53,556 bases of DNA from positions 1 to 53,556 of the forward strand of contig JANMKN010000350.1 of NCBI GenBank assembly GCA_031372065.1, given 5' to 3'. Positions 9,565-41,768 of this stretch are shown here, piece after piece; within the stretch, counting starts at the first letter, position 1, and each line of letters opens with the position of its first letter. The notes under the pieces are model-generated. The model did not search any database. It was not told the origin of the DNA and saw only the letters and a program-made list of their open reading frames with translations. The translations under genes and the position numbers were made by a program. The DNA comes from Abditibacteriaceae bacterium (GTDB taxonomy: Bacteria > Armatimonadota > Abditibacteriia > Abditibacteriales > Abditibacteriaceae).

Positions 9565-11012
9565 AAGGTAACCACCACATGGCAACAAGAAGAGATTTTT
9601 TGAAAACATCGGCTCTGAGCGCGAGCGCGCTTATGCTGCCGCCCTCGGTGCGGAGCGCCTTGGCCGCGCCTGCCGCTGTCGAGTCCGCTGCTTCGGCCAC
9701 CGGCAAGCCGCCGATGCGCTTCATTTTTATGCACAAAGGCAACGGCCTTTTTCCCAGCGTAATGGTGCCGCCCACGCTGAACGCCCAAGAAAAGGCCAAA
9801 GAAGACAAAAAAGAAGCCTTCGAGGTTGACCTCGACAAGCATGATTTGCCGCAATGGATGAGCGCGCTCAGCGACCACAAAAAGCACCTGACGATTTTGC
9901 AAGGCTTATCGGGCCGGATGTGCACCAACGGACATCACTCGTGGCAGTCGTGTTTGGGCGTTTACGCGGCCAACGAACGCCTGAGTTCCATCAAATGGGC
10001 CACGGTCGATTTTGAGCTGGCCCGGCTGTTTCCCTCGCCGTTAGAGCACATCGAACTGGCCTGTTTTCCGATTGACGGCGGCAACGCGCGCGGCAACATC
10101 AACGGCATCGAAAAAGGCTTTTCGGCGCGCGGGCCGCAGCAGCCCAACTACGCTTTCGGCTCGCCCAAAGTCGCCCTCGATGAACTGTTCAAATCGGTGG
10201 CCAGCGACCAAGCCGCGCGCACGCGCTACGAATTAGAGCGCAAAATGCTGGAATTCGTGGCCGCCAACCAAGCCGGGCTAAGCCCCGAAATGGCCGGTTT
10301 GGAGCGGGCGAAAATCCAAAACTATGCCGAAGCCATCGAAGACATTCGCAAGCGCAACGGCAAATTGGAAGCGATGGGCGATGTTATCAGCCGCAACGTG
10401 CCCAAGCTCGACAAAAAATATCTGACCGACGAAGTTTCCACCATCGACCGCCAGCTTGGTCACGTTGAAATTTTGCTTTCGGCGCTGATTTCCGGCATGA
10501 CCAACGTCGTCACGTTCACGGTGGACGAACTGGGCACGCTTTACACGGGCGTTCCCGAACTGGAAACCGAAAAAATCAATCTGCACGACGTGGGACACGG
10601 CAAAGCGGTCGGCAAGTTAGACGCCTTGGAAGTGCGCCGCAACATCCGCAATTGTCACGTGCATCTCATCGACCTCATCGTGCGGCGCCTGAAAAGCGTC
10701 CCGGAGGGCAACGGCACGATGTTCGATAACACAATGCTCTTTTATTTTCCCGACAACGGCGAAACGCACCACAGCATCGGCATCGAGTGGCCGTATCTGG
10801 TTTTGGCGGGCGAAAACGCCAAGCTTAACATCGCTGGTCGCTATATTCGCCTGCCATTTTGGGGCACCGAGGGGCACAAAACCATCGGCAACTGGTTCAC
10901 CACCGTTCTTAACGCCTACGGCAACCCGATTAAACACTTCGGTGACCTCGATTTGGGCCTAACCAAGTTCGTGCCCGACCAAACCGGGCCAATTAGACAA
11001 CTTTTGGCGTGA
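9561..11012 (+). CDS. DUF1552 family protein (Tat-exported)
   Basis: TRRDFLK Tat motif; PMRFIFMHKGNG, GMTNVVT, LHDVGH, EGNGTMFDNT; usual partner of DUF1588/1592 genes. Confidence 0.85.
   Translation: MKGNHHMATRRDFLKTSALSASALMLPPSVRSALAAPAAVESAASATGKPPMRFIFMHKGNGLFPSVMVPPTLNAQEKAKEDKKEAFEVDLDKHDLPQWMSALSDHKKHLTILQGLSGRMCTNGHHSWQSCLGVYAANERLSSIKWATVDFELARLFPSPLEHIELACFPIDGGNARGNINGIEKGFSARGPQQPNYAFGSPKVALDELFKSVASDQAARTRYELERKMLEFVAANQAGLSPEMAGLERAKIQNYAEAIEDIRKRNGKLEAMGDVISRNVPKLDKKYLTDEVSTIDRQLGHVEILLSALISGMTNVVTFTVDELGTLYTGVPELETEKINLHDVGHGKAVGKLDALEVRRNIRNCHVHLIDLIVRRLKSVPEGNGTMFDNTMLFYFPDNGETHHSIGIEWPYLVLAGENAKLNIAGRYIRLPFWGTEGHKTIGNWFTTVLNAYGNPIKHFGDLDLGLTKFVPDQTGPIRQLLA
10935..11012 (+). 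repeat. Direct repeat copy 1 (last 26 codons of the DUF1552 gene)
   Basis: 67/78 nt identical, ungapped, to 11521-11598 by manual alignment. Confidence 0.9.
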
Positions 11013-16935: not shown

Positions 16936-18102
16936 ATGAAACACGCCTTGTCTCTTTTTGTAGCCCTGTATCTGTTAGCGCCGATGAGTATCTTGCACGC
17001 GGCGCAGGTGCCCGAAACGCTGCGTCCGCAGTTGCAAATCATCAACGGCAGCCGCCAGACCATTGACGTTTTTTGGCAGAAATCCGCCACCGAGCGCGTG
17101 CCGAACGGCTCCATCGCGCCGGGCGAGGACGCGATTATCAGCACCACGCTCGGCCATCGTTTCGAAGTGGTGGGCCGCGACGATAAGGCGACGGCCACGG
17201 TTACCAGCGCGGTGCCGGTGCAGGGTTTTCGTTTTGATCCTCAAGGACGGGACGGCGTGCCTTCGTTTTACACGCAAGCGGTCAGCGCGCATGGTTTCCC
17301 CATCGTCGCCTCGGCCAAAGTGAACCCCTACGCGCTCAAAGAAGCGGCGTTTCTGGTCGAGACGATGCTTGCCAACCGCCCGGATGTGCTGACTGCGATG
17401 ATAAAAAGCGGCGCGCGGATGTGCATTATGGCGCACGACGAATACACCACCGACCTGCCGGAGTTCGCGCGGTTGGCCGCCGCAAAGGTGCCGGGATTTG
17501 AAAATGTGTCGCCAAAGGATTATTGGGACGCACGCGCCCGTGGCATGGGCGGCAGCACAACCGACCCGCTTTGCACCGTTGCCGAGGAAAACGTGCTCGG
17601 CTATGCGGGCGACCCATATGAAAAGGAATGCATTTTCATTCATGAGTTCGCCCACAGCATCCATCTGCGTGGCATGGTAAATGTCGATTCGACCTTCGAC
17701 CTGCGGCTGAAGACGGCTTACGACTCGGCCATGAAGGCCGGTCTATGGAAAGGCAAATACGCCTCCGTCAATCACCACGAATACTTTGCCGAGGGCGTGC
17801 AATCTTGGTTCGACAACAACCGCGTGAACGATCACGACCATAATCATGTGAACACGCGAGCGTTGTTGTTGGAATACGACCCCGGTTTGGCGGCGCTCTG
17901 CCGCGAGGTTTTTGGCGACACGGTCATCAAATACACCAAGCCCGCCACCCGCCTCACCGGCCATATGGCAGGCTACAACCCGGCAACCGCACCTAAGTTC
18001 GTGTGGCCAGAGCGGTTGCAACAGGCCAGAGCAGAAATCCGCGCGCAAGCGCAGGCACGTGACAACGCTGCCAATAGTGACAAAAATACGCTACGCCCTT
18101 GA
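16936..18102 (+). CDS. Secreted protein with VHL-beta-like N-domain and zincin (HEXXH...EYFAE) domain
   Basis: Signal peptide; IINGSRQTIDVFW...TTLGHRFEVV resembles the VHL beta domain; FIHEFAHSIH; HEYFAEGVQSWF. Confidence 0.7.
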   Translation: MKHALSLFVALYLLAPMSILHAAQVPETLRPQLQIINGSRQTIDVFWQKSATERVPNGSIAPGEDAIISTTLGHRFEVVGRDDKATATVTSAVPVQGFRFDPQGRDGVPSFYTQAVSAHGFPIVASAKVNPYALKEAAFLVETMLANRPDVLTAMIKSGARMCIMAHDEYTTDLPEFARLAAAKVPGFENVSPKDYWDARARGMGGSTTDPLCTVAEENVLGYAGDPYEKECIFIHEFAHSIHLRGMVNVDSTFDLRLKTAYDSAMKAGLWKGKYASVNHHEYFAEGVQSWFDNNRVNDHDHNHVNTRALLLEYDPGLAALCREVFGDTVIKYTKPATRLTGHMAGYNPATAPKFVWPERLQQARAEIRAQAQARDNAANSDKNTLRP

Positions 18103-21782: not shown

Positions 21783-22166
21783 TTACAAAGAATGGGGACG
21801 CACCACTAATTTGCCGCGCACCATATTCATGCCACAATGGAAGGCAAACTCGCCGACCTTGTTTGGCGTGAATTCCACTGGCACGGTTTCGCCCTGCGGC
21901 AGCATTTTGGAAACGCCAAAGTCGCCGAAGATGACCTGCTCCGTGCAAGAGTTGCTTTCCTCGCGGCGAAAATTGAGGCGCACAGGACGCCCCACTTCTA
22001 CTTCGATACGATCCGGCGAGTAGCCGCCTTTAACAACGATAGTCAGTTCCTGCACGGCACCTTGGGCAGAAGCTTTGACCACTTCGCGGGTGCCAAAGAA
22101 AAACCACAACGTTAAGGCCATCAGCGCCAATCCGCCCACGACCACAAAGATTTCTGCATTATCCAT
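21783..22166 (-). CDS. Membrane-anchored cupredoxin-like copper-binding protein (CupA-like)
   Basis: N-terminal TM helix; GGYSPDRI, SC, FHCGMNMVRGKL; start overlaps the copA stop. Confidence 0.88.
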   Translation of the reverse strand: MDNAEIFVVVGGLALMALTLWFFFGTREVVKASAQGAVQELTIVVKGGYSPDRIEVEVGRPVRLNFRREESNSCTEQVIFGDFGVSKMLPQGETVPVEFTPNKVGEFAFHCGMNMVRGKLVVRPHSL

Positions 22167-24553
22167 TACGAGCTCCTTTCGACTCGAAAACCGCGCAATC
22201 GCAACGCATTTGTCAGCACGCTGACGCTGGATAGCGCCATCGCCAGCGAGGCTAAAATTGGGCTGAGAAGCCAGCCGTTAGTAAAATAATAAAGCACTCC
22301 TGCCGCGATGGGAATGCCCAGCACGTTGTAGATGAAAGCAAAAAACAGATTTTGTTTGATGTTGGCAACCGTCGCTTTCGAGAGAGCGATGCTCGAAGCC
22401 ACACCGTGCAAATCGCCTTTAACGAGCGTAATGTCGGCGGCTTCCATCGCCACGTCAGTGCCGCTACCCATCGCAATGCCGACATCGGCTTGCGCCAAAG
22501 CGGGCGCGTCGTTGATACCGTCTCCCACCATCGCCACAATTTTCCCTTCGACTTGCAGCTTTTTGATTTCGCTTGCTTTGCCGTTCGGCATCACCTCAGC
22601 CAACACACGCTCAATGCCGACTTGCTTGGCGATAGCTTCCGCCGTGCGCCAGTTGTCGCCAGTCAACATGACGACTTCAAGTCCCAACTCATGCAAGCGT
22701 TCTACAGCGGTGAGGGAATTTTCTTTTACCGCATCCGCAACGGCGATGATGCCGACAAATTTTCCATCAAGCGCTACAAACATCGGCGTTTTTCCTGCTT
22801 CAGCTAAACGCGATGCCGCGCTTTCGTCAGGTGCTAATCCGCGATCATGGAGCAATTTCGCGTTACCGATTAACATCTGATGTCCTTCGACTTCGACTTC
22901 AATGCCCTGCCCGGCTATAGCGCGAAAATGCTTGGACTTCGCCAACTCTATATTGCGCGCGGCAGCCGATTTCACGATGGCTTCGCCCAAAGGATGCTCG
23001 CTGCCGCGCTCCGCACTGGCTACCAGACGCAACAACTCGTTTTCCTCCATGCCTTGCGACAGAAGGTCCGTAACCTCTGGTTCACCGCGCGTGATAGTGC
23101 CGGTTTTGTCCAGCACAATTGTCGTCAATTTGTGCGCGGTTTCCAATGCCTCGCCGCCTTTGATGAGGATACCGTTTTGCGCTCCACGCCCCGTGCCCAC
23201 CATAATCGCTGTCGGCGTAGCCAAGCCCAGCGCACACGGACAGGCGATGACTAAAACGGAAACGCTGGTCAAAAGCGCCATTTGCAGGCGCGATTCGACG
23301 GGCGCCACGACGAACCAAATCATGAACGTCGCAATGGCAATGCAGATCACCACCGGCACAAAGTAACCGGAAATTGTATCGGCCAGTTTTTGCAGCGGCG
23401 CCTTGCTGCCCTGCGCTTCCTGCACCATGCGCACAATGCCTTGTAGCACCGTATCTTGGCCGACTTTGGTCGCACGCATTTTGAAAGCGCCAGTTTTGTT
23501 CAGCGTGGCGCCGATCACGGCATCGCCCTCTTTCTTTTCAACCGGCAACGACTCGCCAGTCAGCATAGACTCATCCACGCTTGATGCGCCTTCGATGACT
23601 TTGCCGTCAACGGGCACTTTTTCGCCGGGACGCACTAAAATAATATCGCCGGGCCGCACTTCTTCAATGGGAATATCTTGTTCAATACCATCACGTTCAA
23701 GGCGCGCCGTTTTCGCTTGTAAACCCATTAAGGCACGAATGGCGCCACTGGTTTGGCGGCGCGCGCGCGCTTCGAGTAAGCGGCCCATCAAAATCAACGT
23801 GACGACAATCGCGGCCACTTCGTAATAGACGCCGGGCAGCATCGCTGCGTGCTGGGCGCCATGCACCATGAAAAGCGAAGGCACAACGGTGGCTGTCACG
23901 CTATACAAATAGGCTGCCAAGGTGCCGATAGCAATCAGCGTGTTCATGTCAGCGGCGCGGTGTCGAGCCGCTGCCCAAGCGCCCGTGAAAAACTCTCGCC
24001 CGGCCCAAAAAAGCACTGGTGTGGTCAAGGCCAATTCCAGCCACGGGCGCCATGCCGCATTCATCAAACCATTCAGTTCTGAGACGAAATGCCCGCCCAT
24101 TGAGATGATCGCGAGAGGCAAAGTCAAAACTGCCGCGAAGAGAAATTTCTGTTTCTGGCCGCGATATTCAGCTTCGCGCGCCTGCATTTCAGCGTCTTGC
24201 GTGCTTGCGCCACCACCGTGATTATGAACAGGGTTTTCAGCCGGCAAAATTGCGTCGTAACCGGCCTTTTGCACGGCCTCGCGCAGCTTGTGCGGATTGG
24301 TGACTTTGGGGTCGTAATGCACCGTCGCACGCGTGGTGGCGAAGTTGACGTTGCAGTTTTCAACGCCTTCGGCCTTACCGAGCGCTTTCTCAATACGGTT
24401 GGCACACGCCGCACAATGCATTCCCAAAAGCGGCAAGTCGGCACGAATGGAATCGGTGCCTGCCGCTCCTTTATGATGCGCTCCGTTCTCATCATGTTGC
24501 TGTTCGATGGACGCTGCACTCTGAATAACAGTGAGGGGAATAATCTTTTTCAT
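22166..24553 (-). CDS. copA: Copper-translocating P1B-1 ATPase
   Basis: HMA domain [41 protein letters not shown] and MALSS Cu(I) TM motifs. Start placed at ATG 24553, downstream of the operator. Confidence 0.96.
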
Positions 24554-24577
24554 GGTGTTTTCTTCTCTCATAGCAAT

Positions 24578-24594
24578 ATACCCCCATTGGGTAT
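24578..24594 (-). promoter_or_regulatory. CsoR-type operator overlapping a -10-like hexamer of the copA promoter
   Basis: Minus strand ATACCCAATGGGGGTAT (ATACCC-N5-GGGTAT) overlapping TATATT, about 25 nt upstream of the copA ATG. Confidence 0.85.
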
Positions 24595-24650
24595 GATTAG
24601 AAAGACAATCTCTGCTTTTATCGGTTGCCTTGAAATTCGCAAGTAATTGC

Positions 24651-24696
24651 AGAAAAACACAACACGCCGCTACATCGGTGATGTAGCGGCGTGTTG
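24651..24696 (-). terminator. Intrinsic terminator after csoR
   Basis: Perfect 17-bp stem CAACACGCCGCTACATC/GATGTAGCGGCGTGTTG, 3-nt loop, followed on the minus strand by TGTTTTTC. Confidence 0.8.
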
Positions 24697-24715
24697 AACG
24701 AGGCAAAAGACCGGA

Positions 24716-25006
24716 CTACGCGAGGAAGCGTTTTAACGCGGTTCGCACTTCGGCCAAGAGTTCCTCTTGACTAAGCGGTTTGGCGCACTCATGCTCACTG
24801 CCGGTGCCGTGTCCCATGACGCAGCATTCCAGATGGTTGCTCAGCAGTTCCACACCCAACGCGTCCAGAGCTGAGCGCACGGCGGAGATTTGGTTGAGAA
24901 CGTCCACGCAATAGCGGTCATCATCGATCATTTTACTGATGCCGTTGACTTGGCCAGTGATACGGTTGATGCGCGATTTAACTTTTTTGGTTTGGTCTGC
25001 GTTCAT
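24716..25006 (-). CDS. csoR: CsoR/RcnR family copper-sensing transcriptional repressor
   Basis: RINRITGQVNGI, RYCVDVLNQISAV, NHLECCV (Cys...His-x3-Cys fingerprint); adjacent to copA. Confidence 0.93.
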   Translation of the reverse strand: MNADQTKKVKSRINRITGQVNGISKMIDDDRYCVDVLNQISAVRSALDALGVELLSNHLECCVMGHGTGSEHECAKPLSQEELLAEVRTALKRFLA

Positions 25007-25061
25007 GAGAATTCAGCAGTAAGACTATCCAATTTTCGACACGTTGCCAAAGACCTCGCGC

Positions 25062-25442
25062 CTACTTCACGACGAGAGTGCCTTTATACATATTCATGCC
25101 GCAAGCGAAGGACAGCGCACCCGATTTCTTAGGCGTGAAAGTCAAGGTTGCCTTCTCGCCAACCTTGAGCGATTTACTCCACTTGAGGGCAGGCATCGCG
25201 ACGGTGTTGCCGCAGCCAGCGTCCTTGGTCAGATGAAACGTCAGGGCGACAGGTTTGCCCGCTTTCACTATCGCTGCGCCGGACTTGTAGCCATCGGGTA
25301 ACATGATCATCACTTTTTGCGGCGCTGTTTTCGGCGCATTTTTAGATGGTGCCATTTTGGTGGGCGCTGCATGCGCCGCACCGATCATGGTGGCGCTCAT
25401 GGCGAGCGCGGTCATCGTTTTGGTTGAGGTCTTGGTTTTCAT
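25062..25442 (-). CDS. Nested in-frame secreted cupredoxin-like protein (internal start)
   Basis: AGGAG-ACACC-ATG at 25452-25440, then a complete second signal peptide MKTKTSTKTMTALAMSATMIGAAHA. Confidence 0.65.
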   Translation of the reverse strand: MKTKTSTKTMTALAMSATMIGAAHAAPTKMAPSKNAPKTAPQKVMIMLPDGYKSGAAIVKAGKPVALTFHLTKDAGCGNTVAMPALKWSKSLKVGEKATLTFTPKKSGALSFACGMNMYKGTLVVK

Positions 25443-26903
25443 GGTGTCTCCTGAAGGATTGGGTTTTACGGCAAAAACAAACGGCACGGTGAGAATTTGG
25501 CCACCGTGTTGGAACTGCGCCCAGACTTTGTAAAGTCCGGCGCTGGGGAGTTGCAATTTCCCGGTGAATTTCGGGCCGCTGGCCGTCGCCATTTCCGGTG
25601 TGATTACCAGCCCGTCGCTTCCACCTGAACCGGGGCCGACCATATGAGTGTGAACCACCTGACGGCCATCCTGATGAATCGCCATTAAGTGGCCCATCGC
25701 GCCGAGATACGGTTCCATATCCGTCACTGCTTGCCCGTCCTTGGTGATGGTATAAGTCAATAGCGAGGGTCGCCCGGCTTGGAGGCCGGGTGCGACGTTA
25801 AGGGCAATAGTAAAACCATTTACCATCTTGGAAAGTTGCTTGTCCGGCACAAGGCGCGGCGAGTTTCGGGGTTTGCCACCACCAATTTTAATCTCGCTGC
25901 GCAACATCTGATTCAGGCCGTCAGCGGGCGTAAAATCGGCAAACAGCCAGTAGCGCCCAGCGCGCGGCGCCGTCCAGTTGAGACGGAAACGACCATCGGG
26001 ATTAAGCTGGGGATGTTCATGCGAAAACCAAGAGAGGTCGTCGCTGACCATGATGAGGTGCATCAGTTTTTCGTGAACAAGCTGAAACTTCGTCACGACT
26101 TTCGGCGATCCCGCTTCGCGCACGGCAAAGGTCAGTGGCACGCTCTGGCCAGCGACGGCTTTGCCGTCCCAGTGCAACCCAATACTGTAAGTTTTAGGCT
26201 TGCCGAAGGCTAATTCCTCATACAGCTTCGCGTAAGGAGCCGGGTTTTGGGCAAACGCAGCGGCTTCCTTCTTGGAACAAAAGTAGTAAGTCTGGCCGCT
26301 GTAGGCCACCTGAGCCGCTGCCGTCGCCGGGTCAACGGTCATGCGGCACACAGGGTCTTTTACCGCTCCTTTGGCGATGACTGGCCCGACTTTGGTTAGC
26401 ACACCCGCTGGATAAAGCGCGGCGATTTGGTCGAGCAGAACGTGTATTTTACGCTGATTCGCCACCGTGCCATGCAGATCGTTGTGGTCGCCGGATTCAT
26501 CGAGTTCGTTGGCCAATGTGTCGATCTGCTTGATGATGCCCGACAGCTTTGCCTGTGCATCGGGCGCAAGAGCCTTGCTGTCGGAGCGCAGTTCGCGCAC
26601 GCTGTCGCGCAGGTTGAAAGCCGCTTCATGCACGCCGGCCAACTTGCGGGTGGCGACCAAATGATCGAGGTCGCGTGCTCCCTCGCGCACGTCGTTCCAA
26701 GTCGCGATGCTGTTCTTGAAGGTCGCCAGCACATCCGCTGGTGGCGCAGAAGCATGATGTTCGTTGTGGGATGCGCTCTCTTGGGCAAAACCCGGTAGAA
26801 CGCCGAAAGCGGCGAAGCCGACAAGGGTGGCGAAAACGCCGCCGATTAAAAGTGCGCTTTTGCGCATCATGGATTTCATAATTTTATGTCTGCTCTCTGG
26901 CAT
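25062..26903 (-). CDS. Secreted multidomain metal-binding protein: His-rich helical domain + YHS + two His/Met beta-sandwich domains + cupredoxin
   Basis: Signal peptide; HNEHH; KDPVCRMTVDP...YYFCS (YHS); HEKLMHL...FSHEHP; MEPYLGAMGHL...HTH; GC...FACGMNMYKG. Exact start uncertain (several Met). Confidence 0.8.
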   Translation of the reverse strand: MPESRHKIMKSMMRKSALLIGGVFATLVGFAAFGVLPGFAQESASHNEHHASAPPADVLATFKNSIATWNDVREGARDLDHLVATRKLAGVHEAAFNLRDSVRELRSDSKALAPDAQAKLSGIIKQIDTLANELDESGDHNDLHGTVANQRKIHVLLDQIAALYPAGVLTKVGPVIAKGAVKDPVCRMTVDPATAAAQVAYSGQTYYFCSKKEAAAFAQNPAPYAKLYEELAFGKPKTYSIGLHWDGKAVAGQSVPLTFAVREAGSPKVVTKFQLVHEKLMHLIMVSDDLSWFSHEHPQLNPDGRFRLNWTAPRAGRYWLFADFTPADGLNQMLRSEIKIGGGKPRNSPRLVPDKQLSKMVNGFTIALNVAPGLQAGRPSLLTYTITKDGQAVTDMEPYLGAMGHLMAIHQDGRQVVHTHMVGPGSGGSDGLVITPEMATASGPKFTGKLQLPSAGLYKVWAQFQHGGQILTVPFVFAVKPNPSGDTMKTKTSTKTMTALAMSATMIGAAHAAPTKMAPSKNAPKTAPQKVMIMLPDGYKSGAAIVKAGKPVALTFHLTKDAGCGNTVAMPALKWSKSLKVGEKATLTFTPKKSGALSFACGMNMYKGTLVVK

Positions 26904-26918
26904 AATGCCGACTATGCC

Positions 26919-27704
26919 TTAAAACTGGGTGGAATAGCCCGCGATGAGCTTGAAGCTCTCGCGGTTCGCACCGCCTGAAACATCACTGGTCACGCCCACA
27001 TCAAAGACCGAACGCACCGTAACTTGCTGGCGCAAGCCGATGCCGATTGTCGTCAGGCCATTTTGCCCGCTGAGTGGATTAGCATGATAGCCGACTTGCG
27101 CCACAAAGGTGCGGTCGAAACGAGAGGGCAAGCCCAACGGATGGCTGTAACCGAGAATTACGCCGGGTTGCGTCTTGCGCTCGCCAGCCCCCGCACTGTT
27201 ATTGAGGAACAGGTCAAGGTTCAGATGCACCCGGTCGAAGCGCCCGACCTGCTTGGAAGCGATGCCACGCAAGCGGACATCTACGCCCTGCGAGTCGCGG
27301 CCTGTGGGCAGGAATGCATCGGCCCGCACCGCTAAGGCCGGGGTATTTCCGTATTCGCGGTTGAAGTTGTGAAAAAAGCCAAGGGCCACGGCGCCAAAGT
27401 CGCTGCGTCGTTTGGCCCCAAGGGGTGCCCCGCTGCTATCAGCGACGTATTTCGGGTCAAAGCCGAGTGAGACGTGTGAGTTCTTGGCTAAGCCATAAAG
27501 CAACTCTGCCGCGCCTTCGACACCGGTTTTTCCATCTTTTGGTTTGACGATAGCGCCGCCGACCTCGAACGCCTTTTCGCGGTAAGCCACCGAAGCGGCA
27601 TCGTCGAAATCGAGTGGACGCCCGGCGTCGAGGTTATTGTGGTCAACCGCAAAGGCAGGCGTTGCAAGTAACACCGCCAATGCGGGAATCAATGATTTTT
27701 TCAT
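26919..27704 (-). CDS. Putative outer-membrane beta-barrel protein
   Basis: AGGAGG RBS, ATGA overlap with upstream gene, signal peptide (..PAFA), amphipathic beta pattern, C-terminal KLIAGYSTQF ending in Phe. Confidence 0.7.
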   Translation of the reverse strand: MKKSLIPALAVLLATPAFAVDHNNLDAGRPLDFDDAASVAYREKAFEVGGAIVKPKDGKTGVEGAAELLYGLAKNSHVSLGFDPKYVADSSGAPLGAKRRSDFGAVALGFFHNFNREYGNTPALAVRADAFLPTGRDSQGVDVRLRGIASKQVGRFDRVHLNLDLFLNNSAGAGERKTQPGVILGYSHPLGLPSRFDRTFVAQVGYHANPLSGQNGLTTIGIGLRQQVTVRSVFDVGVTSDVSGGANRESFKLIAGYSTQF

Positions 27705-29260
27705 TGGTGTGCCTCCTTCGCCTCGTGCTCCATCGCATAAGGGTTTTCGACGGGGCCGTGCGGCTTCACATAGGTGGCAGGTGTCCCAGCGCCTTCTTTG
27801 TTGGCCCAATCCTTAAAGGTCAGCGGTTTGGCGTCTTTGTATTTGGGGTTCGCTCTCACGAAGTCGTCGAAAGCGGCGTGACCTGAAAAGGCGCGCGACC
27901 ACTGATTGCACTTGGCATGACTGCCCGGTTCTTCGAGAAACAAAACGCCCGGCGTGTCCGTAGTGAGATTACCTTCCTCATCGGAAATCACGACCAGCGT
28001 TTTCTCCGGCGTTTCCAGCGGTATTCGCAGAATGGCCTGACCTTTGGTTTCGCTGGCCATGTCGCGGGCACACAGCGCGCAACGTTGGCGCATCGTCCAA
28101 CCTTCGGCGCTTACCGTCGAAGAGCGCCACTCGTCCTTGCCAGTGGGTAGCGGCATCGAGCAGTGATGGCAGTCGCTCATGCTCATCCACCCCATGCCCG
28201 GCATATACATCAGCTCGGTTGTCGCGCCTTTCATCATGCCCATGCCCGGCATCCCTTCCAAGAAGCGATGATCGTGCATACTGCCCTGCATTTGATCTGT
28301 GCCGTCGCCAGCTTTTTCGTTGCGGTGCGCGTCCGCCGACACTATCCAAATGGCGCGCTTGATTTGCTCGGCTTTCTGCGAATCGCTTATCCAATCGCTG
28401 GCGAGGATGTCGTTCACCATGTCGTGCAGCATATGCAGGTTGTCGAAGGCATTAGCGATGTCGGGATACTTCGCGGCGAATTTGGGACTGGTTTCCGCAA
28501 ACATCGGCATGAAAACGCGATTCGTGCGGTAAAGCTCCGTCTTGTGATAGCGTTGGCCAACCACCTCATAAGAGCGTTTTTGCTGTTCCAACGTCAAGCC
28601 GTCCAGCATGTCATACATTCCGCCTTGCAGCCAGTGGTAACCCCAGAAAAGGCCGTTCACCTTCGGGTATTTGTGGCGAAAGGCCATGGAATAAGGCTGA
28701 GAATCGAGCCAGCCCATGTTCATCGGCAATGGCGTGATGGCGTAGGGCACCTGCGTGAAATAGAAATCCCACAGCGCCCTGATCTCACGGTCTTTTTGCG
28801 CCGGTGTCATCTTCGGCGAAGCCAATACGTCCACGGTCTGTGCGTGCAGGACGTGTGTCCAGTCGAAGACTTGCTCCAACACGCCGTATTTGCGCCCAAA
28901 TGTCGGCGAAAGATTGGCTTCATCCGGCATGAACTTGGGCGGATTGTTCAGCACGCGATTGATATGGTCAAACGTGGCACTATCGAGCGTGGCCGCCTTA
29001 CCGGTCACCAAATCTTCGTAAGCCATTGCGTGCCCAACCGCCACGGCGTTCAAATCGAGCGCCAGCGGTTTGAGGTTGTAAACCGCGAAGTTGTAAGGCC
29101 CGCGCTTGTAAAAGATGTGGTTTTGTTTGGTGTTGTCCAGCCACGATGGCAGATTCTTCGGTAACGACGGTAAAGCCGTGATCGAAGCAGGCATTTGCGC
29201 GTGGGTAACGCTCGCTGCCGCCAAGATCGCCAACGTAGTCATCCAAATTTTGCGTTGCAT
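27701..29260 (-). CDS. Uncharacterised secreted metal-binding protein: duplicated HxxH helical domain + Met-rich linker + NosL/MerB-like Cys domain
   Basis: GAGGAG RBS; signal peptide; FDWTHVLH and FDNLHMLH repeats; MPGMGMM...MYMPGMGWMSM; CHHCSM, CALC, HAKC. Confidence 0.8.
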   Translation of the reverse strand: MQRKIWMTTLAILAAASVTHAQMPASITALPSLPKNLPSWLDNTKQNHIFYKRGPYNFAVYNLKPLALDLNAVAVGHAMAYEDLVTGKAATLDSATFDHINRVLNNPPKFMPDEANLSPTFGRKYGVLEQVFDWTHVLHAQTVDVLASPKMTPAQKDREIRALWDFYFTQVPYAITPLPMNMGWLDSQPYSMAFRHKYPKVNGLFWGYHWLQGGMYDMLDGLTLEQQKRSYEVVGQRYHKTELYRTNRVFMPMFAETSPKFAAKYPDIANAFDNLHMLHDMVNDILASDWISDSQKAEQIKRAIWIVSADAHRNEKAGDGTDQMQGSMHDHRFLEGMPGMGMMKGATTELMYMPGMGWMSMSDCHHCSMPLPTGKDEWRSSTVSAEGWTMRQRCALCARDMASETKGQAILRIPLETPEKTLVVISDEEGNLTTDTPGVLFLEEPGSHAKCNQWSRAFSGHAAFDDFVRANPKYKDAKPLTFKDWANKEGAGTPATYVKPHGPVENPYAMEHEAKEAHQ

Positions 29261-29302
29261 TCTGCTCCTCTGGGGGCGCTTAACAGCGCCCCATTGCCGC
29301 GT

Positions 29303-29821
29303 TTATTTGGCTTTCTCGTTGGTTTTGTCCACAATTTCGAGCATCTGCGCCAACGTCAGCGGCTTGGTATCCGGTAGTTGCTCTTTATTGTTGGCAATAT
29401 ACACCTGCGCTGCCTCTATGGTCGTGAAAGCCCGGTAAGTTACGTTGCAGATTTTGTGATTGGCTTTCTGCGCGACGAAGGCGACGTTTTCCTCCGAAGC
29501 CGTCCACTTGCCGTCAGTGCGTTTTAGAGTGACCGGTTCGCCCTTCTTTTCTGAGGGCGCAAGGATGCTCAGATCGCCCTTGTATTCGGTCTTGGCTTCC
29601 GAAAGTGCACAATACACGCACTTGTATTCGATGCGCTTTTTGCCCAATTTCAGGGTCACTTCGTTGTCTTGCGTGGCGGTGTCCTGTGTGAGGGTTTGTG
29701 CGCAGAAAGGGCATGGCGCTTCGTGCGCCGGTGCCGGACGGACAAAAGTAATGCCGCCAAGGGCCAGCGTAGCGCCCAGAATTATTGCCGCACGGCGGCG
29801 AGTCATTGGAATGGATTGCAT
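29303..29821 (-). CDS. Exported Cys-rich NosL/MerB-like metal-binding protein
   Basis: AGGAG RBS; TRRRAA + hydrophobic leader (Tat-like); CPFC, CVYC, HKIC, RAFTTIEAAQVY...KPLTL. Confidence 0.75.
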   Translation of the reverse strand: MQSIPMTRRRAAIILGATLALGGITFVRPAPAHEAPCPFCAQTLTQDTATQDNEVTLKLGKKRIEYKCVYCALSEAKTEYKGDLSILAPSEKKGEPVTLKRTDGKWTASEENVAFVAQKANHKICNVTYRAFTTIEAAQVYIANNKEQLPDTKPLTLAQMLEIVDKTNEKAK

Positions 29822-30030
29822 GATGTCTCCTGAATCGAGTCGGTTGAAGGTTTTTGTCGAGAGCGACGAGAAATATCGCTTAATGTTGCCGTGCACAGCA
29901 AGGCGAGTCACTTCCTTTAGCGCAGGCGCGCTTGGGTGATATGGGCAGGAGCTAAACGGGGATTTTAAGGCGCAACACGAACCTTCGCGAGGCGAGATAC
30001 GACATTTATAGCCACCAATTCAGCTCTTTG

Positions 30031-30504
30031 CTAAATTGCAGGCGGGGCACGGCTGGGGAGTGAAATGAAACAAGGTTTCGGAGGGCGTTGAATGTCGCTG
30101 CCAACGCAGAAGTGATTGGCTGGCGGCAAGACTGCCAGTGCAAAGGGAAACGTGGGCGTTGCCAGAGCAAGCAAAGAAAAGGCGCTTGTGTTCTGTGCTT
30201 CGGACGCAAACGGCAAGGTTTCTGGGCCGTGGCATTCACAGCGTTGGTCGATATTGCACTGTGCGGCAGGGTAAGCGTGGTGCTGGTTCGCATTCGCCAC
30301 CACAGCCGATTGCGCCATTCCGCCTTGCGCCGCGCCGCCAGAACGTGCAGTCGCATCACTTTCATTGTGGCACGATTCAACATGAGCTTGCTGTCCATTG
30401 GGCGCGCAGCAACAAGCGAAAGCCATCGTCGGGGTTATGACGACCCCGAAAACGGCCAACAATGCCAAAACAACCCAAAATTTGCTCTTGCGGAGAACGT
30501 TCAT
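30031..30504 (-). CDS. Cys/His-rich leader protein with C-terminal RAPP motif (DUF2946/CruR/CutF/CopL-like candidate arrest peptide)
   Basis: N-terminal hydrophobic segment, 9 Cys and 6 His, Pro-rich tail ending SRAPPAI*; first gene after the operator. Confidence 0.72.
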   Translation of the reverse strand: MNVLRKSKFWVVLALLAVFGVVITPTMAFACCCAPNGQQAHVESCHNESDATARSGGAAQGGMAQSAVVANANQHHAYPAAQCNIDQRCECHGPETLPFASEAQNTSAFSLLALATPTFPFALAVLPPANHFCVGSDIQRPPKPCFISLPSRAPPAI

Positions 30505-30518
30505 TATTTTTGAGGGCA

Positions 30519-30538
30519 ATTATACCCTATGGCGGTAT
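30519..30538 (-). promoter_or_regulatory. CsoR-type operator overlapping a TATAAT -10 box at the head of the copper operon
   Basis: ATACCCTATGGCGGTAT (30522-30538) is 15/17 identical to the copA operator in inverted orientation; minus-strand TATAAT at 30524-30519. Confidence 0.8.
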
Positions 30539-30819
30539 CTACGACTGCCTCATGCGAGGGTTCCCGTGATCTGCCAAGGCAACGACAACCAGACTCTCCC
30601 TCTACTTCGCCAATTCAATAGAAGCCGGGCTGCATGCCCTGTAACGGGACTTTTCCCGTAACGCTTTGTGGAGAGATTTGGCCACGATGATAAAGCCATA
30701 AAGCAGCCCATTTTCCGTCGATCAGGCCGTAAGCGAAAGCGGTGGCGGCGTTGGTGCCAGCAGTTTTGAGCGTGCCATGCGCGAATTTGACGCCGGGAAA
30801 CGCGAAAATTTAGTCGTTT

Positions 30820-30954: not shown

Positions 30955-30982
30955 TTTACAAAATCTATTTCAGGGGTATAAT
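30955..30982 (+). promoter_or_regulatory. Sigma70-like promoter for the DUF1559 gene
   Basis: TTTACA-N16-TATAAT, about 42 nt upstream of ATG 31025. Confidence 0.6.
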
Positions 30983-31024: not shown

Positions 31025-31750
31025 ATGAACATGAAACGCCGCAACACAACACGCAAGCCACAAACCGGCTTCACCTTGATCGAGCTGCTTGTCGTCATAG
31101 CGATAATAGCGCTCCTCGCCGCCATTTTATTTCCCGTTTTCGCTCGCGCCCGCGAAAACGCCCGCAAATCGTCCTGCATGAACAACATGAAGCAAATCGG
31201 CGTAGGCTTGATGGCGTATGTGCAGGACTTCGACGAAAAGTATGTGTTTCAAAATGGTGATGGCCTGACTGTGGGGGGCGCCGCAGGCGCTCCCATGGGA
31301 GCAGTAGCCGGTTTGACCTTTGCGGATTTCCTCCATCCTTACATCAAAAACGAACAGGTTTGGAAATGCCCGTCATGCCCCAGACTGGGAGACCCCAACC
31401 CACGAATCAGTTATCACATGAATGGCTGCATGAACGGCACATCACTGGCTAATGTGGCGGCAGTCTCAAAAACCAGTATGTTTCGTGATCCGGGAAGTTC
31501 GACCACTTACAACCGCTGCTTTCTGCGCGTTGTTCCGGTTGATTATGGTGCCAACGATTGCGACGGTAGCGCGGCGGGAACGACAAATATCACCAACGAG
31601 CGCAATGGCGTCAATGCGCAGGCAGGCCCGCACTTTGAAGGCTACAATGTGGTTTTTGCCGACGGCCATGTCAAGTGGATGGCGCGCAGTGATTTTCTGC
31701 TGACAGGCACGGGAGCGAAAATTATTTACAGTCCGAATGGTTTGAAATAA
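31025..31750 (+). CDS. DUF1559 family prepilin-type N-terminal cleavage/methylation protein with H-X9-DG motif
   Basis: [52 protein letters not shown]. Confidence 0.92.
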
Positions 31751-37054: not shown

Positions 37055-38452
37055 CTATTTCGGCTGCGCTTTAAAAGTCAATAAATTAGCGCCAGTTTGC
37101 GTGTCCCAAACACGAACTTCGCCATCAAACGCGCCGCTGATGAGACGGTTGTGGGCCGCGTCGTAATCGAGGGCAAAAACCCAGTCGGTGTGACCTTTGA
37201 AAACGCGCGTTTCTTTTAAATTCTCCAAGTCGAATTGCTTGATTGTGCCATCGCCCGACGCGGCAAAAGCCATGTTACCGCGCACGATGAGCGCGAAAAC
37301 TTCGGCACCAAAACCGTGTTCAATATAACGCGCGCTGCCTTGCTTGGAAAAGCGGTCTTCCATGTCGGCAGCGGTGCCGTTTTCTTCGGCGGTTTTGATC
37401 GGATTCCACAGTTGCAGCCATTTGCCGCCACCGGCGCTAACAGCCAGCGGCGTGCCTTTTTCAAACTGCACACCATAAACCGGGGCCTGTCCGCGATACT
37501 GCCCGATTTGTCGGTTGTGCCCGCCATAAGTGGTAAACAAAGTGCCACTTTGGGCTTCGTAAACTTTCACCGTCATGTCTTTGCTGGACGAGGCCAAAAA
37601 GCGCCCGTCGTCGCTGAAACCCAGCCCTGTCACCCAATCGGCATGGACTTTATTTGTCCACAAACGCAGGCCGTTTTGCGTTTGGTAGGCGCGCACTCCG
37701 GCATCGGCGCCGCCCGCCGCGATAAGAGTGCCATCAGCGTTGAAAGAGGCACATAAAGCGATGTCGCCAAACGTGTCGAGCGTTTTTATTTTGCCGGTTT
37801 GCGGCTCAATTAAAGAGACTTCGCCATATTCACCCGGCGTGCCGCCCGCCACGAGAAGCTGTTTGCCATCGGGCGAAAAAATCAAACTTTGAATGCGCTG
37901 CGGCAAGTGCCCGATGCGCCGCAAAAGCGCGCCATTTTGCGGATTCCAAACCGTAATTTCGTTGTAGCCAGCCGCGAAAATTTCCTGTCCATCCGGCGAA
38001 AAGGCCAGCGCTGTCACAGCAACAGGCACGCGATATTTTTGCGGCGCATCGGGATGCTTTCGCGGCCCCAACAAACTTTTGAGCGGCGCGGTGGCGTCGC
38101 CGCCATCGAATTTCGCGCCTTCTTTGATCCATTGGCGCACGCTTTGAATATCGCTGGGCGAAAGCGGGTCGTCAGCTTGCGGCATCCGCTCGTTTTCATC
38201 CGTTGTGACAAGGCGGCGCAGCAATTCCGATTTATCCGGCTGCCCGGCGACAATCATCGCTTTGCCGGACGCGCCGGTTTTTTGCAAAAATTCAAACGTA
38301 GTGGTGCGATAGCCGCCCGCGTTGCGCTTATCGCCGTGACAACCGGCACAACGGCTCACCAGCATCGGCGCGACATCGCGCACAAACGAAACCTGCGCCA
38401 GCGCGGGCCGCAAAATTCCGAGGAACAAAACAAAAAGTAAAAAGCGCTTCAT
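37055..38452 (-). CDS. Planctomycete cytochrome c domain + WD40 repeat protein
   Basis: VSFVRDVAPML..RCAGCH, RMP, WIKEGA; several WD40 repeats (AFSPDG, GHTDWV...VRVWD). Confidence 0.9.
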   Translation of the reverse strand: MKRFLLFVLFLGILRPALAQVSFVRDVAPMLVSRCAGCHGDKRNAGGYRTTTFEFLQKTGASGKAMIVAGQPDKSELLRRLVTTDENERMPQADDPLSPSDIQSVRQWIKEGAKFDGGDATAPLKSLLGPRKHPDAPQKYRVPVAVTALAFSPDGQEIFAAGYNEITVWNPQNGALLRRIGHLPQRIQSLIFSPDGKQLLVAGGTPGEYGEVSLIEPQTGKIKTLDTFGDIALCASFNADGTLIAAGGADAGVRAYQTQNGLRLWTNKVHADWVTGLGFSDDGRFLASSSKDMTVKVYEAQSGTLFTTYGGHNRQIGQYRGQAPVYGVQFEKGTPLAVSAGGGKWLQLWNPIKTAEENGTAADMEDRFSKQGSARYIEHGFGAEVFALIVRGNMAFAASGDGTIKQFDLENLKETRVFKGHTDWVFALDYDAAHNRLISGAFDGEVRVWDTQTGANLLTFKAQPK

Positions 38453-38461
38453 GTGATTTTT

Positions 38462-38556
38462 ATAGAACGCAAATTACGCAAATGATCGCGAATTTTCGCT
38501 AATTCTCTTTGAAATATTTCGTAAATTTGCGCCAATTCGCGTCATTTGCGTTCTAT
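38462..38556. repeat. Long imperfect palindrome (about 37-bp arms) built of CGC(A/G)AAT sub-repeats
   Basis: ATAGAACGCAAATTACGCAAATGATCGCGAATTTTCG ... CGTAAATTTGCGCCAATTCGCGTCATTTGCGTTCTAT. Confidence 0.8.
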
Positions 38557-38563
38557 TTTTCCG

Positions 38564-41500
38564 CTAATGTTGAAACAAAAATTCGCGCGTGTTGGTGACA
38601 GTCCAAATCAAATCCGTGACCGCCGTTTTGCGATCAGGCGTTTTGGCTAAGAAGGATTTAGCAACCCCAATTTCTTTCGCCGTCGGAAAGCGAGCGAGCG
38701 CTGATAAATAGAGTTCTTCGATGAGTTTTTGGTCATCGAATTTCATGTATTTATCCGCGCCGGAACTGGCGGCTTGTTGTGCCATATCACCGTTTAAAAG
38801 TTCAAGGGCTTGCAACAGCGTCGGCGAATTGGTGCGCTCGCAGGTGCAAGCCGTTTCGCGTTTGGGTTGACCAAAAGCGGTGGCAAAAGTCGAATCGGCG
38901 GGATACAAACGCTGCGTGGCATAATCCGAGCGGTTTTCCAATTGTGTGATTTGCGCGTTCAAACTGTTCAAGTTTTTGTCAGCCTCAAAATACGCTTCGT
39001 GCAATAAATTCTTTTGTTCTTCGCTGCGTTTATCGTTGGGCAGCGCCAAAATTTCAACGGCGTGCGGTGGCAAATTGAGATTGTTTTTAAAAGTCTCGTC
39101 TGCGCGAAAAGAGAAGTTCGCTTCGCCGCCGCCATTGACGATTTTGAGCAGTAAATCGTTATCGCCCGGCTGCAATTCGAGTTTCACTTTTTGGCCGTTA
39201 TTGAATGGATTTTTTGTAGCTTCTTTGCCGTTCAGCCACAGTCGCCCTCGTTCGTCGGGATCAATTTGCACTTCAAGAGTTTGCGCTTTGGCGCTATAAA
39301 TTCTGCGACCTAAATAATGCACCTGATTGTTGTCGGTGGAAAGATTGTTCTTGCGATTATCTTCCAAATCGGGCCGCAGTTGCCAACCGGAATTTTCAAA
39401 GCGTGCTGATAAATCAATCGGAAACTTTTCGGGTGCCAAAGCGGTTTCGACAGCTTTCTCGAAATCGCTGTGCGCAAACGGCCCGGCGAGAAACCAACCA
39501 CCGGCGCGCAACGGCAATTGTGCGACTTCATTCTGCGCGCCGGGCAGCCATGTTTTGTAATCGTTTTCCAATTCGGCGCGGCGCTTTTCGGCGCGCTTTT
39601 GATAATCCTGCAAACTGGGTTCGATGGTTTCTGCATCCGGCAGCGAACGCGTTGCCAATCGCAGCGCGTCGCGCAATTGCTCGGCGCTTAAAAGACGGAC
39701 GCGCGCATGAGAAAATAAGGTTTCGTCTGTGACGTTAAAGTCATTAGTTTGGGTGGTGCGTTGATAAGTTTGGCTGTTGCAAATCAGACGCATGATATGC
39801 TTGCGGTCATAACCGCTTTTGATAAATTCGGCAGCCAGCGCCTCTAAAAGCGGCACGTTGGACGGCGGATTGGAAGAACGAAAATCATCAACCGCTTCGA
39901 CAATGCCGCGCCCGATTAAATCGGCCCAAATGCGATTGACTTCCACGCGCGCAAACAGCGGATTATCGGGCTTGGTGAGCCAATCGGCAAACAAGGCGCG
40001 GCGATCTGTTTTGGCTTGCGTTTTTTCGTCGGTCAGTCCCCACGGTTTCATGCGCTCGCCCGAAGTGGGCAACAAAACCTCGCCAGAATTGACCGCTTTG
40101 ATTTCGCCTTTTTCGGCTTTGGTGCGCGCAAAAACCGCCGTGATGCTGTAATAATCGCGCATTGTCCAGTTTTCAAAGGGATGATTATGGCAGCGCGCGC
40201 ACTCGATGCGCGAACCCATAAAAATCTGCGAGGTCATTTCGGCGCGTTCTTTTTCGTCGTCAATCGCCAGATAATAATTGGCGGGCGCTGCTTTTTTGGT
40301 GTCGCCTGAAGCGGTCAAAAGCGCGTGCGTCCATTGGTTATACGGCGTGTTTTGGCGCACGCGCTCGATAAGCCACTTCGAGAAAAGCTCGGCGCGTCCG
40401 TCTTTCAATTTGCGCGGCGAAACGCGCATTAAATCGGCTTTTTTCAAGGCCTGAAAACGCGCGAATTCTTCGCTGTCAAGCAAGGCATCAATTAACTTGG
40501 CACGCTTGTCCGGCGCGCTGATTTTCAAAAACTCACGCGTTTTTTCGGCGGTTGGCAAAAGGCCGGTTAAATCAAGATAAACGCGCCGTAAAAATTCGTC
40601 ATCGCGGCACGTTCCAGAGGGCAGATATTGCAGTTGTTTTAATTTTTCGTTGACCAACTTATCAACCCAGTTGATTTCAACAGGGTTGTTCCATTGAAAG
40701 CCTTTTACGTCTTCGATAACCGTGACATAAAGCGATTGCAGCGCGTTGAGATAGCGCACCGAAATCGCGGCCTGCCCGCGCGCTTTGCCGACGATTAAAC
40801 CATCGGCGTCCACTTCGGCCACGTCGGGATGCGACGATTCATAATGTGCCAAAGCGCTGACATCGCGCGCACTGCCATCGGAAAAATAAGCCAGCACGCT
40901 CATTTGCTGTTGAAGAAACGGCGCTTTTAAAACGCGTGCCGCGCCGGGGAAAATCACAACTTTTTCGCATTCGACAGCGGGCAAATCAACATTGGCGCCT
41001 TCGTAAATCCAATCGCGAAAAACCCGATAGGCCGTATCGGTTTTGCGCAGTTTTTTGCCGCCGCCGTGGGAGACTTCGAGCAGCGGTTTTTTGAGCATCA
41101 AACTTCCTTCCGGCTGCATAATATCAAGCCGCCGATTAAAGCCATCGCGCACCAGCGACACTTTATCAATGCGTGGATCGTAGCCGAAAAGCGACAGCGA
41201 AAAACCGCCTTTGCCATGCGGCGAACCGTGACACGAACCAGCAGAGCAGCCGTTTTTGGTCAGCGCCGCGACGGTTTCGCTTTTGAAACGAATTGGCTCG
41301 GCTTCGGCAAAATGCGAAACGCTGATCGGTAATGCTAAGTTTTTGTCGCCAAACGAAATCGTCAGGCGCGTGTTGCCATCATTAAGGGGATGGACTCGGC
41401 CTTTTTGCAGGCTCGCAATTTTTTCATCGGCCACGCGAAAAATCGCGCTTTGCGTCACATCGCGCGCCGCACCGTTGAAGTAGGCCGTGACGACCAACTG

Positions 41501-41683
41501 GCGATAAGCGCGGCGGCTTTCGAGTTTAATTTCGCTCACATTGGCTTCGAGGCGCTCGGCTTTTGGCAGCGCAGGTAGCAGCGCAGGCACCGTTTTAACA
41601 ACAGGCTTTTGCAGCGGCGTTGCCGCATAGCCAAAGGATGCATGGCCCAGCGCGGCGAGGAGAATTGTGAGGCAGTTTCGCAT
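38564..41683 (-). CDS. DUF1549/DUF1553 protein with Ig-like (Big_2) domains
   Basis: Signal peptide from ATG 41683; GCSAGSCHG..GKGGFSLSLFG, FLRRVYLDLTG, CARCHNHPFE, GRGIVE.VDD, CTCER, TLLQAL, EFLFQH. Confidence 0.9.
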   Translation of the reverse strand: MRNCLTILLAALGHASFGYAATPLQKPVVKTVPALLPALPKAERLEANVSEIKLESRRAYRQLVVTAYFNGAARDVTQSAIFRVADEKIASLQKGRVHPLNDGNTRLTISFGDKNLALPISVSHFAEAEPIRFKSETVAALTKNGCSAGSCHGSPHGKGGFSLSLFGYDPRIDKVSLVRDGFNRRLDIMQPEGSLMLKKPLLEVSHGGGKKLRKTDTAYRVFRDWIYEGANVDLPAVECEKVVIFPGAARVLKAPFLQQQMSVLAYFSDGSARDVSALAHYESSHPDVAEVDADGLIVGKARGQAAISVRYLNALQSLYVTVIEDVKGFQWNNPVEINWVDKLVNEKLKQLQYLPSGTCRDDEFLRRVYLDLTGLLPTAEKTREFLKISAPDKRAKLIDALLDSEEFARFQALKKADLMRVSPRKLKDGRAELFSKWLIERVRQNTPYNQWTHALLTASGDTKKAAPANYYLAIDDEKERAEMTSQIFMGSRIECARCHNHPFENWTMRDYYSITAVFARTKAEKGEIKAVNSGEVLLPTSGERMKPWGLTDEKTQAKTDRRALFADWLTKPDNPLFARVEVNRIWADLIGRGIVEAVDDFRSSNPPSNVPLLEALAAEFIKSGYDRKHIMRLICNSQTYQRTTQTNDFNVTDETLFSHARVRLLSAEQLRDALRLATRSLPDAETIEPSLQDYQKRAEKRRAELENDYKTWLPGAQNEVAQLPLRAGGWFLAGPFAHSDFEKAVETALAPEKFPIDLSARFENSGWQLRPDLEDNRKNNLSTDNNQVHYLGRRIYSAKAQTLEVQIDPDERGRLWLNGKEATKNPFNNGQKVKLELQPGDNDLLLKIVNGGGEANFSFRADETFKNNLNLPPHAVEILALPNDKRSEEQKNLLHEAYFEADKNLNSLNAQITQLENRSDYATQRLYPADSTFATAFGQPKRETACTCERTNSPTLLQALELLNGDMAQQAASSGADKYMKFDDQKLIEELYLSALARFPTAKEIGVAKSFLAKTPDRKTAVTDLIWTVTNTREFLFQH

Positions 41684-41699
41684 GAGGGAAATGAGAATC

Positions 41700-41764
41700 A
41701 TGGAGCGCGGGCCTCTTGCCCGCATTTTTCGTTTTCCATTGCGGGCGAGACGCCCGCGCTCCAT
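41700..41764. repeat. REP-like GC-rich palindromic element
   Basis: ATGGAGCGCGGGCCTCTTGCCCGCA-N15-TGCGGGCGAGACGCCCGCGCTCCAT; each arm also has an internal hairpin. Confidence 0.8.
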
Positions 41765-41768
41765 AGGT

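Follow-up and report, generated by a model that had tools for sequence, protein, structure and literature searches.

We analyzed a 53,556-nucleotide stretch of DNA from an Abditibacteriaceae bacterium (phylum Armatimonadota; contig JANMKN010000350.1 of assembly GCA_031372065.1), hereafter called the window, and focused on a putative copper-handling locus on its minus strand. The list of open reading frames (ORFs) of the window contains a block of eight co-oriented ORFs, g1 to g8, running from position 30504 down to position 21783 (Table 1). An earlier note, made from the letters alone, had described eight co-oriented genes in two units separated by a strong terminator. All eight ORFs were indeed found, all on the minus strand, and the terminator consists of a perfectly paired 17-bp stem followed by a U tract. 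The duplicated six-histidine domain of g3, the CxC motif of g1 and a segment inside g5 comprising a ribosome-binding site (RBS), an ATG and a signal-like stretch were absent from that description. All genome-wide scans reported here were performed on the genome of origin (6.14 Mb, 93.9% complete), in which the window is contig C329. Among the best 80 of 277 named loci, the closest named matches to g3 belonged to Abditibacteriaceae. No RNA dataset carrying the locus was found among the matches listed, and the DNA contigs covering it came from a single study, one run of which is possibly the source, and added nothing independent.

Table 1. Features of the copper locus, listed from its upstream to its downstream end
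Feature	Position	Strand	Basis
CsoR-type operator 1 (TAC-X9-GTA), overlapping a TATAAT -10-like hexamer	30520..30540	-	position weight matrix score 21.3, genome rank 2
g1, exported Cys-rich leader with C-terminal RAPP	30031..30504	-	ORF; similar leaders in relatives
g2, exported NosL/MerB-like protein	29303..29821	-	Pfam MerB E 6.5e-4; homology to g3 C-domain
g3, exported six-His protein of 519 amino acids with NosL/MerB-fold C-domain	27701..29260	-	AlphaFold2 model, fold comparison, repeat search
g4, predicted outer-membrane beta-barrel (MetA/PF13557-like)	26919..27704	-	weak profile match; conserved residues
g5, exported mosaic: helical domain, YHS, His-rich tandem repeat, CupA-like cupredoxin	25062..26903	-	Pfam, alignments
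In-frame RBS and ATG (M488) inside g5, possible second start	25440..25452	-	sequence inspection
g6, CsoR (C33, H58, C62)	24716..25006	-	PF02583 E 2.5e-26
Intrinsic terminator-like hairpin, 17-bp stem and U tract	24660..24696	-	between csoR and copA
CsoR-type operator 2, ahead of copA	24576..24596	-	position weight matrix score 23.9, genome rank 1
g7, CopA, P1B-1 Cu(I) ATPase	22166..24571	-	motifs; TIGR01511
g8, CupA-like membrane-anchored cupredoxin	21783..22166	-	phmmer to 2mry E 1.5e-23

The csoR, copA and cupA genes of the locus are ordinary, and the three-gene core g2-g3-g4 is its new part. P1B-1 ATPases of the CopA type are marked by the motifs CPC, YN, MxxSS and DKTGT together with a CxxC in the HMA domain. 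All of these are found in g7 (the CxxC being CAAC and the MxxSS being MALSS), which scored 629 bits against TIGR01511 (cut-off 397). No other Cu-type P1B ATPase was found in the genome, whose two remaining P1B pumps carry SPC, and the true start of g7 lies perhaps a few codons downstream. The match of g8 to Streptococcus pneumoniae CupA includes the N-terminal membrane anchor, and the Cys and the CGMNM motif align. The best Protein Data Bank (PDB) matches of g6 were CsoRs; its Cys-His-Cys set occupies the X-Y-Z positions, and there is no His before residue 58, that is, no N-terminal His at the W position. Proteins of these three types are already known (PMC7558416, PMC8643695; here and below, papers are cited for the passages available to us), and a CsoR ligand motif by itself does not fully fix the inducer (PMC8643695).

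A TAC-X9-GTA core has been described for CsoR sites (PMC3902906), and both operators of the window fit it. We built a matrix from eight sites located upstream of csoR or copA at four related loci, leaving out the nine X8-spaced sites among the 17 candidates. Over the whole genome, the two operators of the window obtained the top two scores, the third-best site reaching 15.2. Ahead of the cassette, a site above 12 bits was present in 13/72 relatives and in 0/72 control stretches taken from g3; four of these 13 loci had also given other training sites to the matrix. In view of the genome ranks and of these counts, the predicted control of unit 1 (g1 to g6) by CsoR is well supported in this genome but is not general. 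The CsoR regulon proposed in the earlier note is supported for both units here, and it is not a general trait of the relatives. A promoter scan called a full promoter at neither operator, despite the TATAAT hexamer overlapping operator 1. Some additional sites were noticed by the way. Three relatives (L083, L086, L087) share a G-rich site, TATAGGG...GGGGTAT, about 650-700 nucleotides upstream of g2, at the position of the operator; it has a low matrix score and is possibly another operator type. A weak sigma-70-like sequence (TTGGCA-17-TAGTCT, window positions 25022-25050, minus strand), not called by the scan, lies directly upstream of csoR as a possible internal promoter, and csoR has no clear RBS.

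The first gene of the cassette encodes a protein of 157 amino acids without a Pfam match, endowed with an export signal and a CxC motif 60 residues before its C-terminal RAPP. A Cys-rich ORF with a terminal R[AG]PP heads the cassette in 52/76 g2-bearing loci (54 matches minus two spurious ones, L054 and L122). In 51/53 leaders, the one of the window included, the last Cys, usually within a CxC, is located 59-68 residues before the Arg. A CruR-type CxxC about 45 residues before RAPP was found in none of the 53 leaders, and the PF11162 (DUF2946) profile matched neither g1 nor four related leaders. CruR itself has its CxxC at 45 residues from RAPP and its genes are shut off in copper (PMC9426467), while CutF has a CxxxC and turns on a multicopper oxidase (PMC9973294; bioRxiv 10.1101/2025.02.05.636593). 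With CutF-like leaders g1 shares the export signal, a Cys motif, a PP within the last 15 residues and a co-oriented downstream gene, but it exceeds their length limit of <150 amino acids and lacks the CxxxC. Because g1 fails the DUF2946 profile, we only infer by analogy that it may work like CutF or CruR, as a predicted ribosome-stalling sensor.

The leader also bears on a different reading, in which the cassette imports or stores copper in a concentration window, being turned on through CsoR and off by a CruR-like leader at higher copper. The RAPP of g1 is identical to that of CruR, C is in mild excess around the stop of the leader (C/G of 1.35 in the window and of 0.95-1.96 in relatives), no significant hairpin was found over the g2 RBS (z -1.1), and many relatives have the leader without the operator. 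However, the CxxC at 45 residues is lacking, operator 1 shares bases with a -10-like hexamer, and efflux ATPases are linked to the genes. We regard import or storage as quite unlikely.

The earlier identification of g2 as NosL/MerB-like and of part of g3 as NosL-like proved sound. In addition to the weak MerB match of g2, this protein is homologous to the C-terminal domain of g3 (hhalign 99.6%), and the latter aligned with MerB2 (Z 8.8, root-mean-square deviation [rmsd] 3.4, 125 aligned residues) and with NosL (Z 7.9, rmsd 3.8, 111 aligned residues). The putative ligands of g2 (H33; C37xxC40; C68xxC71; H122xxC125) are kept in 76-78/76-78 sequences, and the four Cys and the HxxC are common to g2 and the g3 C-domain. 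The NosL motif CxxCxM is present in 41/81 g3 C-domains and not in g2. NosL is a Cu(I) chaperone (PMC8457098). Its client NosZ was not found in the genome scan, which gave only a weak match to the C-terminal domain. Elsewhere (L215:8480-10198, L216:9839-11494 and P0195), a NosL-like domain is fused to a different, probably barrel-forming domain. In L215 and L216 this fusion replaces the g3 N-domain and g4 and is sited after the g5 repeat and g2; the long C-terminal domain is unrelated, with a weak porin match in one of the two.

The g3 protein is composed of a duplicated helical domain, a Met-rich linker and the NosL/MerB-fold domain. The internal repeat of the N-domain was detected with an E of 1.6e-20, and each repeat contributes three His (H77, H136, H139 and H209, H276, H279). 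These His are kept in 35/35 near homologues, 47-59/63 far ones and 9/9 sequences of a small cross-clade alignment. For the sequence part of the earlier claim of an envelope-spanning set of metal-binding proteins, these conserved His and Cys ligand sets in exported proteins lend support. The AlphaFold2 model had a predicted local distance difference test score of 91.5 for the whole protein and 94.4 for the N-domain alone. No Pfam match was obtained for g3, and searches of PDB sequences with g3, its alignments and the barrel returned nothing significant. Similarly, the N-domain alone had no clear match in the PDB with Foldseek and VIA-align (best E 0.3). Its best fold match was a G protein-coupled receptor (Z 5.1, rmsd 4.5, 138 aligned residues), and the fold matches listed included no tyrosinase, hemerythrin or ferritin-like family. 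The lack of a clear match does not prove a new fold. Compared to the multicopper oxidases CueO, PcoA and CutO, g3 has no Cu-oxidase domain and its N-domain is all-helical. Overall, the core families have neither a firm Pfam assignment nor a PDB sequence match, and the modeled g3 N-domain is one candidate for a new metalloprotein fold.

The g4 protein matched PF13557, a MetA-type barrel family, at 16.5 bits (E 0.009), below the cut-off of 22; among 63 g4 homologues, 18 matched it at E<=0.1, the best at 6.6e-7. Its invariant residues are D21-H22 at the N terminus, H160 and a C-terminal Phe. A domain fused to the C terminus of such a barrel would lie in the periplasm, and binding between g3 and g4 is proposed here from adjacency and fusion only.

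As for g5, it carries H92, D100 and D139 in its helical domain and H277, H282, H295, H297 / H405, H418, H420 in its tandem His-rich repeat. Clusters of the ESM Atlas bore only 'hypothetical' names, besides a weak YtkA lead for this repeat (19% of the cluster members). In other genomes the g5 domains are fused in varied ways or encoded by separate genes, often the latter. By these comparisons g5 is a variable fusion, and g2-g3-g4 plus the leader are the conserved unit. At M488, an RBS and an ATG in frame are followed by a signal-peptide-like stretch, and initiation there would yield a stand-alone cupredoxin. The same RBS word precedes g2, and a comparable internal segment was seen in one of the inspected relatives (L051). 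Moreover, a stand-alone exported paralogue of the g5 C-terminal cupredoxin, 67% identical, is encoded on contig C125 (2669-3034). This paralogue and the internal RBS, ATG and signal-like segment suggest that g5 may be a recent fusion or a dual-start gene.

To place the cassette in its phylum, we searched 301 sampled genomes; g3 was matched in 42 of them, 36 strongly. Among the best 80 named loci, several of which come from near-identical strains, g3 stands beside the barrel gene in 79/80 and g2, g3 and g4 stand side by side in 73/80. The g5 His-repeat occurs in 52/80. Linkage to copA and csoR, by which the earlier note had proposed to check its case, proved recurrent: a P1B ATPase is present in 30/80 loci and is Cu-type in 29 of these 30, and csoR is present in 20/80. 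Other recurrent neighbours are CzcA/CusA-family pumps (21), DUF2231 (21), DUF305 (20), DUF326 (6) and OEP (6). In the 41 loci with at least 8 kb on both sides, a Cu ATPase was found in 20, csoR in 15, either of them in 23 and some metal gene in 31. Copies of the cassette were also found in records labelled Elusimicrobiota, Zixiibacteriota, Acidobacteria and Ignavibacteriales.

A profile search reaching into a more distant clade yielded 443 representatives, 149 of them newly listed. In 12 of these 149, the g3 N-domain follows a g4-like barrel within one fused protein; other distant fusions of g3 N-domain or barrel homologues involve cupredoxin, cytochrome c, DUF2231 and SnoaL. Among the best 80 of 579 metagenome loci of this clade (40 of at least 6 kb), 60 have the barrel, 14 have a P1B ATPase, 10 have a CusA-like pump and two have csoR, and no NosL-like genes were found. 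Four of the 14 distant P1B ATPases have full Cu-type motifs and one is Zn/Cd-type, most others being truncated or unclassified. Some distant loci sit among housekeeping genes. Relatives also carry a second subfamily of g3 N-domain and barrel pairs (L211, L212, L214), which has a Met-rich tail and is accompanied by Zn/Cd-type genes, by DUF305 or by a multicopper oxidase.

These neighbourhoods allowed us to weigh three further readings. In one, g3 would be a cuproenzyme of the periplasm acting on a small organic or redox substrate, with g2 and its own NosL-like domain loading the metal, the MetA-type barrel admitting the substrate, and CsoR and the leader timing synthesis to the copper supply. 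An enzyme would be in keeping with the pseudo-symmetric helical domain, whose six His and many aromatic and polar residues are invariant, with the fusions to cytochrome c, DUF2231 and SnoaL, with the barrel's match to PF13557 and with the fact that NosL serves an enzyme, NosZ. The neighbours, however, are metal efflux or storage genes (CzcA/CusA, DUF305 and DUF326, as counted above) and not catabolic ones, and the barrel has invariant His and Asp; we consider this reading unlikely. According to another, the g3-barrel core handles one or more other metals (Zn, Cd, Co, Ni, Ag) and sits in copper islands only in some lineages. In its favor are the paralogues in Zn/Cd-type islands, the CzcA/CusA-family pumps, the suitability of His-only sites for divalent ions and the chance that the CxxC pairs are structural Zn sites. 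Yet the only strong matrix operators of the genome are at this locus, its repressor has the C-H-C set, and the pump is Cu-type in all but one of the ATPase-bearing loci. On balance, a role in other metals seems very unlikely to us. Finally, unit 1 might be unrelated to metals and linked to csoR and copA by chance, as the occurrence of some near and far loci among housekeeping genes could suggest. But an operator of its own precedes unit 1, and the same linkage is seen again in several phyla, in different gene orders; we hold coincidence to be extremely improbable.

We then considered the copper genes encoded elsewhere in the genome. The earlier note had seen no multicopper oxidase, CusCBA or CopCD at the locus. 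Genome-wide, no multicopper oxidase was found, and the searches for Cu-oxidase_2, CopC, CopD and CusF were negative, but CzcA/CusA-family RND pumps are present outside the locus. Across the sampled genomes, the Cu-oxidase_3 domain was found in 2/36 cassette genomes compared to 48/265 others (Fisher p 0.059), and in 2/35 compared to 11/44 within the four carrier families (Fisher p 0.031). These counts were made by hand, and the anticorrelation gives weak support since kin are not independent and the domain also marks other enzymes. Two other contigs of the genome deserve mention. Contig C194 (2183-10032) encodes an RND pump, an OEP-like gene and a fusion protein with a CupA-like cupredoxin, with a short Cys-containing exported ORF upstream, and is a possible second copper efflux route. 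Contig C393 (1071-16632) is a heavy-metal island with two CzcA-family pumps and an SPC-type P1B ATPase, as well as CDF-, ZIP- and Csp-like ORFs judged by eye.

Our preferred reading is that the locus is probably a copper-induced periplasmic capture and export module acting downstream of CopA, and that the cassette likely clears envelope copper in place of the usual copper oxidase. In this scheme, Cu(I) would release CsoR from both operators, and CupA and CopA would carry Cu(I) to the periplasm. Like CutF, the Cys/RAPP leader would likely check envelope copper a second time, at the level of translation. Chaperoning or buffering of Cu(I) could then fall to the g5 modules and to the NosL-like domains of g2 and g3, and the six His of g3 might make up a two-copper site in which the metal is held and possibly oxidized. 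Docked beneath the g4 barrel, g3 would hand over copper that leaves through g4. The gene order, the two operators, the Cu-type motifs of CsoR, CopA and CupA and the conservation of the cassette with its ligand residues are observed; every step after the CopA pump is inferred.

Several observations weigh against this capture and export module. None of the six metal-gene classes was found in 10/41 long loci. A strong X9 operator is missing ahead of the cassette in 59/72 relatives, the matrix covering X9 and not X8 spacing. CruR-type RAPP leaders turn genes off in copper (PMC9426467), and therefore the leader does not fix the direction of control; the CsoR operator ahead of it favours induction. 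The Cu-ligand Met of NosL is missing from g2 and kept in only 41/81 g3 C-domains. Paralogous g3-barrel pairs lie in Zn/Cd-type islands (L211, L212), where their neighbours are a second, untyped P1B ATPase and ZIP, CDF, MerR and OEP/MFP efflux genes, with a multicopper oxidase in L211. Lastly, cassette and oxidase are only weakly anticorrelated, and both occur together in two genomes.

A bolder version goes further and makes g3 the founder of a new six-His dicopper class whose fold is unrecognised. As a cuprous oxidase, or as an enzyme that activates O2, g3 would dock on its own outer-membrane barrel and be loaded by NosL-like domains; in Armatimonadota and further understudied phyla it would take the place of multicopper oxidases, under the double control of CsoR and the CxC/RAPP stalling leader. 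We find this conceivable but rather doubtful. The cassette is real and undescribed, a variant of what is probably envelope defence against copper, and no publication on it was found among the matches listed in the open-access literature. What is known of copper defence in the periplasm comes mainly from CueO, Cus and Pco/Cop of Proteobacteria, and the cassette points to a different solution in Armatimonadota. It also brings several families for which Pfam has no model, a six-His domain that is modeled with confidence and has no clear structural counterpart, a NosL fold put to use outside denitrification and a variant of the putative stalling leaders.

Outside the copper locus, a divergent DUF1559 prepilin-type gene (31025-31750) is preceded by a strong promoter match (11/12) at 30955-30982 on the plus strand, whose G tract before the -10 resembles an operator half-site. 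A 388-residue ORF (16936-18102, plus strand), located after two peptidase genes, gave a weak ATLF metalloprotease match (E 0.0055, below the cut-off). Planctomycete-type clusters (DUF1592/1588/1552; DUF1549/1553/1501 with WD40 and cytochrome c) were seen at 6871-11012 and 37055-43199.

Compared to known systems, the csoR-copA-cupA part of the locus resembles CsoR-CopA(-CopZ) efflux operons and pneumococcal CupA-CopA, with which it shares a C-H-C repressor, TAC-X9-GTA sites, a P1B-1 ATPase and a CupA-like anchored cupredoxin. However, CupA is paired here with CsoR instead of the CopY of S. pneumoniae, and a five-gene exported cassette sits behind a second operator. The leader recalls CruR (DUF2946) of Bordetella pertussis by its export signal, its Cys motif, its C-terminal RAPP and its place as first gene of a putative Cu operon, but it lacks PF11162, has its CxC about 60 residues from RAPP, stands behind a CsoR operator and is followed by no TonB receptor. 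The g3 C-domain and, by homology, g2 share with NosL/MerB their fold and an N-terminal CxxC, whereas they have four Cys and an HxxC in place of the CxxCxM, CxxxD and Met of NosL, in a genome in which no NosZ was found. Three His per half is an arrangement that we take to recall the type-3 dicopper sites of tyrosinase and hemocyanin, in which six His likewise come from two pseudo-symmetric helical halves; g3 differs in its H + HxxH pattern, and no sequence or fold match to these proteins was listed. Finally, Rhodobacter cutFOG, Xanthomonas copLAB, with its gene order copL-copA(-copB), and PcoAB also place an exported leader with a Cys/Pro tail ahead of a periplasmic His-rich protein and a chaperone, and the Cop and Pco sets include an outer-membrane barrel. 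In contrast to these, the cassette has no multicopper-oxidase domain, g3 being helical and not a cupredoxin, its barrel matches PF13557 and not CopB, and its leader carries CxC and not CxxxC. In function, the set would correspond to cutFOG, copLAB or PcoAB, with proteins of unrelated folds.

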